In this document: positions 7,640 through 7,832 of the stretch, piece by piece
Layout of the letters: the number at the start of each line of letters is the position of its first letter
Numbering within the stretch: the stretch's first letter is position 1
NCBI RefSeq assembly: GCF_003334335.1
Contig: NZ_QOWQ01000020.1
Strand: one strand, 5' to 3'
DNA length: 64,000 nucleotides
DNA from: Escherichia coli
GTDB lineage: Bacteria; Pseudomonadota; Gammaproteobacteria; Enterobacterales; Enterobacteriaceae
Position numbers and translations under genes: made by a program
Notes under the pieces: model-generated
Told to the model about the DNA's origin: nothing
The model's database searches: none
The model's input: only the letters and a program-made list of their open reading frames with translations

Positions 7640-7832
7640 GCCGGATGCGGCGTGAACGCCTTATCCGGTCTACCGATCCGGCACCAATGTAGGCCTGATA
7701 AGACGCGCCAGCGTCGCATCAGGCATCATGCACCAATTGCCGGATGCGGCGTAAACGCCTTATCCGGCCTACGGTTCGGACTATTTGTAGGCACGATAAG
7801 ACGCGACAGCGTCGCATCGGGCATGGTTTGCC
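7640..7832. repeat. BIME: four alternating REP (palindromic unit) repeats
   Basis: GCCGGATGCGGCGTGAACGCCTTATCCGG-type units alternating with TGTAGGCCTGATAAGACGCG...GCGTCGCATCAGGC-type units, in inverted orientations. Confidence 0.75.

Follow-up and report, generated by a model that had tools for sequence, protein, structure and literature searches.

A BIME-2 of two tandem Y-Z2 pairs between fadA and the FadZ-terminator module in the fadBA 3'UTR of Escherichia coli

The window analysed here is a 64,000-nucleotide stretch of E. coli DNA in which the genes fadB and fadA lie on the plus strand and meet the convergent gene fre, with ubiD beyond it (Table 1). The stop codons of fadA and fre were found to enclose a gap of 282 nt (7634-7915), of which an array of REP units covers 183 nt (65%). 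This array is extragenic, lying between two stop codons in a transcribed 3' region, with the fre stop situated 5 nt away from the T-run of the fadBA strand. Comparison to K-12 MG1655 showed positions 7814-7915 to be identical (102 of 102 nt), and published K-12 data are therefore transferable to the window, coordinates being converted as window = 7915 - (K12 - 4027229). The identity extends over all of K-12 FadZ with its probe site and U-tail, and over the RNase E sites upstream.

Table 1. Features of the fadBA-fre locus in the window
Feature	Position	Strand	Basis or remarks
fadB	4145-6460	+	ORF list and RefSeq annotation
fadA CDS (3-ketoacyl-CoA thiolase)	6470-7633, stop TAA 7631-7633	+	ORF list; RefSeq annotation of E. 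coli records identical or nearly so
Spacer CCACTT, 6 nt, fadA stop to REP1	7634-7639	+	
REP1, Y type	7640-7673	+	1 mismatch in 34 to the Y consensus; hairpin -19.6 kcal/mol (+), -17.2 (-)
REP2, Z2 type	7689-7724	-	0 mismatches in 36; hairpins -21.9 and -21.4 kcal/mol
REP3, Y type	7739-7772	+	0 mismatches in 34; hairpins -21.3 and -20.9 kcal/mol
REP4, Z2-like, most degenerate of the four	7787-7822	-	3 mismatches in 36; hairpins -16.3 and -15.7 kcal/mol
Remnant of a fifth REP: a Y unit reduced to its 5' arm (GCCAGATACGTC against GCCGGATGCGGC)	7830-7841	+	Fuller in other alleles
A/U-rich spacer with RNase E sites	7833-7867	+	Published K-12 sites at window 7833, 7844, 7859-7862, 7865-7867
FadZ (STnc790) module: seed UUUAGUUGCCGUUCUU, terminator hairpin, U-tail	about 7869-7912	+	K-12 FadZ 4027272 to 4027232; northern probe match 7873-7895
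fadBA/FadZ intrinsic terminator: 7-bp stem (6 G-C pairs), 5-nt loop, then T7	hairpin 7885-7903, T7 7904-7910	+	-13.9 kcal/mol
fre (NAD(P)H-flavin reductase), 702-nt CDS, convergent with fadA	7916-8617, stop 7916-7918	-	RefSeq annotation; C-terminus translation
ubiD	8663-10156	-	RefSeq annotation

Scanning with REP consensus sequences revealed four units in the order Y(+) Z2(-) Y(+) Z2(-), making up two direct repeats with a period of 98-99 bp and 89-90% identity, with linkers of 15, 14 and 14 nt between successive REPs. The number of Y or Z2 consensus matches expected by chance was 0.00, as determined with dinucleotide shuffles of the window. These scans bear out a first-pass annotation, made from the sequence alone, which had described four alternating REPs of two types after the fadA stop. 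Its placing of the array at 7640-7832 was also correct, except that the end was set 10 nt too far, within the half-REP at 7830-7841, the true end being 7822. This relic of a fifth REP is better kept elsewhere, as GCCGGATGCGAC in O157 and as GCCAGATGCGGCGT in allele L019. Each of the four REPs can form a stem-loop on either strand (-15.7 to -21.9 kcal/mol, z-scores of -3.4 to -5.1), and REP3 and REP2 are the same as the reference REPs of Durrant et al. (PMC11208160). Three other Y-type REPs were identified in the window, at 26714-26747 (+), 34892-34925 (+) and 50903-50936 (-), with 3, 1 and 0 mismatches respectively, while the consensus scan found no Z2 unit elsewhere in the 64 kb. A query containing the array gave a median of at least 38 matches per genome among the matches listed (5426 genomes).

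The fadA-fre element is a BIME-2 composed of two tandem Y-Z2 pairs. In the definition of these families by Gilson and Bachellier, an L motif with an IHF site marks BIME-1. The element does share a Y-type REP with BIME-1 (Y-L-Z1), but a BIME-1/IHF reading was rejected as the partner unit is Z2 and not Z1, the linkers of 14-15 nt are too short for an L motif, and the IHF consensus WATCAANNNNTTR is absent from the fadA-fre gap.

A search of Rfam matched naRNA4 (RF02564) at 7692-7769 (-) over the full model (1-77 of 77), with 92.1 bits against a gathering threshold of 59.5. The corresponding match on the fadBA strand reached approximately 31 bits, so that the naRNA4-like orientation of the array is that of the fre-sense strand. 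Sub-threshold matches to anti-hemB (21.5 bits) and mir-9416 (21.6 bits) were rejected as chance. The unit matched is homologous to the Z2-linker-Y unit of REP325 (the naRNA4 locus), a BIME-2 between yjdM and yjdN which differs from the present array in having 12 REPs rather than 4 and in lying in a tandem operon rather than between convergent genes, with the strong match here falling on the fre strand. The current view of REP325 is that of a 3'UTR element, at once mRNA stabiliser and partial Rho-dependent terminator, while its nucleoid role with naRNA4 (HU binding) is disputed. The likeness of the fadA-fre array to naRNA4 is one of sequence and predicted structure, and the array is not filed here as a functional naRNA.

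Folding of the whole 3'UTR (7625-7915, +) at minimum energy gave one long nested helix in which REP1 is paired with REP4 and REP2 with REP3 (-130.7 kcal/mol, z = -7.3). Instead of four local hairpins, this fold would give a long double-stranded RNA. It was not adopted, as REPs fold singly, locally and co-transcriptionally.

The stem of the intrinsic terminator was found to begin 252 nt past the end of the fadA stop codon, in agreement with the distance of about 250 nt given for it in the first-pass annotation. In K-12, a Term-seq 3' end has been reported at 4027235(-) (sequence ...CCCGCCTGTCAGGGGCGGGTTTTTT and, past the boundary mark, T; Adams et al. 2021, PMC7815308, Supp. file 1), which corresponds to window position 7909, the sixth T of the T-run, 276 nt past the fadA stop. 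This end was present in LB at OD 2.0 and in M63 and absent in LB at OD 0.4, and was classed merely as 'antisense to fre' (PMC7815308). Ends mapping upstream of the array would have spoken against transcription of the array with fadBA. The same data set holds no curated K-12 3' end within the REP array, where ends may be under-reported as REP reads multi-map. Published K-12 data thus show that fadBA transcription crosses the REP array and extends as far as the hairpin with its U-tract.

The terminator hairpin assigned to fadBA in the first-pass annotation is indeed a terminator, with the sRNA FadZ at the same place having gone unrecognised. Bar et al. 2021 (PMC8175672) gave the name FadZ to the RIL-seq hub 'fadA.fre.IGR', an Hfq-dependent RNA that builds up in stationary phase. 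Its 3' end was placed at 4,027,232, while its 5' end was unreadable from RNA-seq and was put at 4,027,272 by a northern band, the northern probe being GACAGGCGGGAAGAACGGCAACT (PMC8175672). In window coordinates FadZ extends from approximately 7869/7872 to 7909/7912. The adjoining BIME offers a plausible account of why RNA-seq coverage did not reveal this 5' end. No transcription start site is recorded for FadZ, and RNase E sites are listed at 4027277-79, 4027282-85, 4027300 and 4027311 (PMC8175672, Supp. Table 6). Liu et al. 2023 (PMC10703908) described FadZ (STnc790) as a species of about 40 nt in Salmonella and E. coli that is released from the conserved terminal part of the fadBA 3'UTR, disappears in an hfq deletion as well as in rne-ts at 44 °C, shares with fadBA an induction by fatty acids via FadR and CRP, and represses the porin mRNAs ompD and ompC. 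REPs go unmentioned in that study, and neither FadZ paper (PMC8175672, PMC10703908) comments on a variable REP array between the fadA CDS and FadZ.

No sigma-70-like promoter was found on the plus strand of the fadA-fre gap, and no Rfam family matched FadZ. An own promoter for FadZ was rejected on the basis of this result and of the sole match being weak, on the minus strand and at chance level. That match (7867-7896; CTGACA, 18 nt, TAAACT) is situated in the terminator hairpin, with 0.7 such sites expected by chance. Lacking a promoter of its own, FadZ is made only from transcripts of the fadBA promoter that cross the entire BIME. Its origin backs co-transcription of the array with fadBA more than a terminator prediction would, and the promoterless FadZ, along with the Term-seq end at 7909, supports the earlier proposal that fadBA transcripts carry the whole array in their 3'UTR.

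The approximately 16 nt upstream of the hairpin (TTTAGTTGCCGTTCTT, 7869-7884) were found to be conserved across Enterobacteriaceae far past what a terminator needs, with the remaining gap being hypervariable. In a scan of one genome per species, a Fre C-terminal pattern identified 120 loci, with the gap being measurable in 84 (convergent fadA within 2.5 kb and its stop in range). Among these 84 species loci the gap ranged from 41 to approximately 640 nt, with some Citrobacter loci exceeding 1.7 kb. An exact copy of the 41-nt FadZ-terminator core was present in 34 of the 84, and a core with three mismatches or fewer in 56, the genera with such a core including Escherichia, Salmonella, Citrobacter, Enterobacter, Kluyvera, Klebsiella and Raoultella. 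The module of Yersinia is more diverged (13 mismatches), and Rouxiella, Pantoea and Erwinia possess a gap of 41-45 nt with no insert, just a related hairpin and T-run. Escherichia sp. ESNIH1 (L024) and Pseudescherichia vulneris (L023), with a gap of 53-54 nt, have, in place of the FadZ-terminator module, another G+C hairpin of 10 bp that no T-run follows; FadZ appears to have been lost or replaced in these two.

The variable material was in every case found past the fadA stop and ahead of the FadZ module, being BIME-2 in E. coli and other REP types in several Citrobacter species. Unlike that of E. coli, the 196-nt fadBA 3'UTR of Salmonella is without a BIME-2. An ERIC-like sequence occupies the position of the BIME in Salmonella enterica subsp. 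arizonae (L085) and in Citrobacter sp. FP75 (L013), the insert of the latter matching 19 of 22 nt of the ERIC2 primer sequence. In gaps with extra DNA the FadZ module usually lies on the fadA side, and in large-gap loci it is 1.5-2.2 kb from fre. As it stays by fadA when such a distance parts it from fre, the FadZ-terminator module belongs to fadBA. Extra DNA of 0.4-2.2 kb between the module and fre was observed in Citrobacter (L030, L046, L047, L068, L079, L112), in Klebsiella (L071, L087) and at two further loci (L090, L106). Judged from this comparison of species, the terminator is ancestral and the BIME has pushed the fadA CDS away from it, which matches the role of separator inferred for the BIME in the first-pass annotation.

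The fadA-fre locus was found in all 5426 complete E. coli genomes, approximately 38 of which were without it in contiguous form. A comparison of REP copy number among E. coli strains, as had been suggested from the sequence, revealed 2, 4, 6 or 8 units, numbers that were verified by REP scans of fetched loci. Linker junctions are common to other BIME-2 loci, so frequencies were sampled rather than counted over all 5426, using two systematic samples down the ranking of these genomes (40 rows, and 60 rows with a REP-free flank query). Two REPs were found in 24 of the 40 rows and 39 of the 60; four in 10 and 14 (nine of these 14 of the window type and five of a divergent type); six in 3 and 5, MG1655 being among the latter; and eight in none and 1 (TOP10). 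An array with IS621 within it accounted for none of the 40 rows and 1 of the 60, while the other three rows of the smaller sample were two fadA-deleted strains and one 36-nt plasmid match. At least one Y-Z2 pair was present in all of the approximately 100 sampled rows with an intact locus. Two-REP alleles differ in the units retained, the O157 type having the REP1/REP2-like pair and another type the REP3/REP4-like pair. In all E. coli alleles examined, the FadZ module is invariant and 6 nt separate the first REP from the fadA stop.

The BIME of K-12 MG1655 (4027229-4027608) has the flanks, the first and last units, the 6-nt distance to fadA and the sequence from the last REP to fre in common with the window, but contains six REPs, with one more internal 98-bp Y-Z2 unit and a gap of 380 nt compared to 282 nt. 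Eight REPs were observed in the K-12 derivative TOP10 (L007, NZ_CP080620.1, 307-685) compared to six in MG1655 (L006), which suggests either a recent gain of one 98-bp unit in the lab lineage or an assembly difference. REP2 holds the exact natural target of IS621, ATCAGGCCTAC (target sequence from PMC11208160; window equivalent 7689-7699), an element of the IS110 family with a bridge-RNA recombinase. In strain MFDS1019527 (L008, NZ_CP169309.1, 3261-4533) a frameshifted IS621 was identified at the tail of a Z2 REP of the array. Two records, NZ_CP026343.1 and NZ_CP107281.1, one of them from a laboratory source, matched the query from position 184 only; in these, fadA has apparently been deleted up to its stop codon, with the array and fre retained.

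The best explanation of the locus overall is a BIME-2 in the fadBA 3'UTR, between the fadA stop and an older terminator/FadZ module, with the roles proposed here, to which a probability of about 0.75 is assigned. Published data on the identical K-12 and the orthologous Salmonella sequence show that RNase E cuts in the A/U-rich spacer past the last REP and gives rise to the Hfq-bound FadZ of about 40 nt. On the present proposal, the REP hairpins would, after this cut, constitute the 3' end of the fadBA mRNA and would block 3'->5' exonucleases (PNPase, RNase II). The classical REP stabilisers (malE-malF among them; Newbury et al. 1987) are likewise hairpins 3' of a CDS that can block 3'->5' exonucleases. 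In contrast to these, the primary 3' end lies past the fadA-fre REPs, which would become terminal only after removal of FadZ by RNase E. At other loci REPs have a measurable stabilising effect on the mRNA upstream and reduce readthrough, in part through Rho, with effects that are context-dependent in genome-wide data. A partial, Rho-assisted attenuation may also operate at the fadA-fre array, and REP number (2-8) could then set the share of transcription that reaches FadZ. Such attenuation cannot be strong, because FadZ is readily detected in K-12 with its six REPs. REPs positioned within 15 nt of a stop codon have been reported to stall terminating ribosomes (Liang et al. 2015, as summarised in PMC12306157). 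REP1, which begins 6 nt past the fadA stop, falls within this class of translation-coupled REPs (15 nt or less) and may hinder ribosomes terminating on fadA.

The opposite strand, whose transcripts across the array had been left unconsidered in the first-pass annotation, correct as it was for the fadBA strand, provides the material for another reading. Read on the minus strand, the hairpin at 7885-7903 precedes AAGAACGG and has no U-tract. A Rho termination region has been reported directly past the array at 4027855(+), antisense to fadA (Rho score 10.3, p = 7e-27; Adams et al. 2021, PMC7815308, Supp. file 2), with reads falling from 152 upstream of it to 20 downstream in the absence of bicyclomycin, compared to 179 and 243 respectively in its presence. 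Transcripts in the sense of fre therefore cross the array and are terminated by Rho between fre and a point about 250 nt into antisense fadA. Following Rho termination downstream, exonucleases trim such transcripts to stable stem-loops, which are frequently REPs, and it is likely that the REPs of the array are stable 3' ends of fre transcripts too. It could be that the array chiefly serves this strand, by providing the ubiD-fre transcript with a stable 3' end and a zone of Rho-linked termination, a serious contender judged to fall somewhat short of even odds. In addition to the Rho region, the hairpin without a U-tract and the trimming of Rho-terminated transcripts, it is favoured by the naRNA4-like orientation on the fre strand and by a mean RNA-seq count of 4307 for fre compared to 273 for fadA (approximately 16 times higher) in one data set. 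Against it, Term-seq reported no fre-strand 3' end in the gap (PMC7815308), although multi-mapping may conceal such ends. A role for the fre strand is also compatible with one for fadBA, the array being transcribed on both strands; in the mechanism proposed above, too, fre transcripts read over the same array and are stopped by Rho in antisense fadA.

A selfish or neutral repeat without a role in expression, spread by a REP-associated transposase and unequal recombination in an insertion-tolerant site, is possible but rather unlikely overall; the polymorphism within E. coli and the varied inserts of other genera give it good support. The range of copy number in E. coli, the difference between MG1655 and TOP10, the two-REP alleles that keep different units and the IS621 within the array of one strain would all be expected of such a repeat, as would the other REP types, ERIC-like elements or nothing found at the same site in other genera; furthermore, terminal REPs have shown no genome-wide effect on half-life. 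Set against these points are the Y-Z2 pair retained in every sampled intact E. coli row, the exact distance from stop to REP1 in all alleles, and the stabilisation and attenuation by REPs seen at other loci. A DNA-level role, in which a gyrase site between convergent genes could relieve positive supercoils, fits with the BIME-2 composition and the position between convergent transcription units, and 207 of 704 convergent E. coli gene pairs (approximately 30%) have REPs between them. DNA gyrase reportedly binds BIME-2, at binding and cleavage sites described by Espeli and Boccard in 1997. Hi-C and nucleoid measurements speak against chromosome-organising roles of REPs, and this role is considered improbable as the main explanation. 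The array itself might also be the effective terminator of fadBA, with the distal hairpin and FadZ transcribed separately, given that REPs are capable of partial Rho-dependent termination. This is very improbable indeed, in view of the missing FadZ start site and plus-strand promoter, the need of FadZ for RNase E and its control by FadR and CRP as for the fadBA promoter, and the Term-seq 3' end at the distal T-run.

The preferred reading, that of a BIME-2 inserted in the fadBA 3'UTR ahead of the terminator/FadZ module, corrects the annotation of the locus in that the 'fadBA terminator' is the FadZ sRNA, with the BIME lying between the CDS and FadZ. FadZ is a neighbour of the BIME and not the BIME itself. 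The locus, the terminator and FadZ have all been published already, and the feature is an ordinary one, being the K-12 BIME one unit shorter, of a kind that is widespread in 3'UTRs and between convergent genes. The sole new angle is that of a REP array of variable copy number placed between a CDS and a 3'UTR-derived sRNA. By combining attenuation with capping of the mRNA once RNase E has cut, REP copy number might act as a strain-specific dial that uncouples fadBA mRNA stability from FadZ output, a suggestion that is doubtful at present; the variable REP number fits a neutral permissive site as well as it does tuning. The natural allelic series of 2, 4, 6 and 8 REPs offers a handle on whether REPs set the balance between an mRNA and the sRNA derived from its 3'UTR, here between fadBA and FadZ. 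If copy number does act in this way, the strength of porin repression upon fatty-acid induction would be set per lineage.
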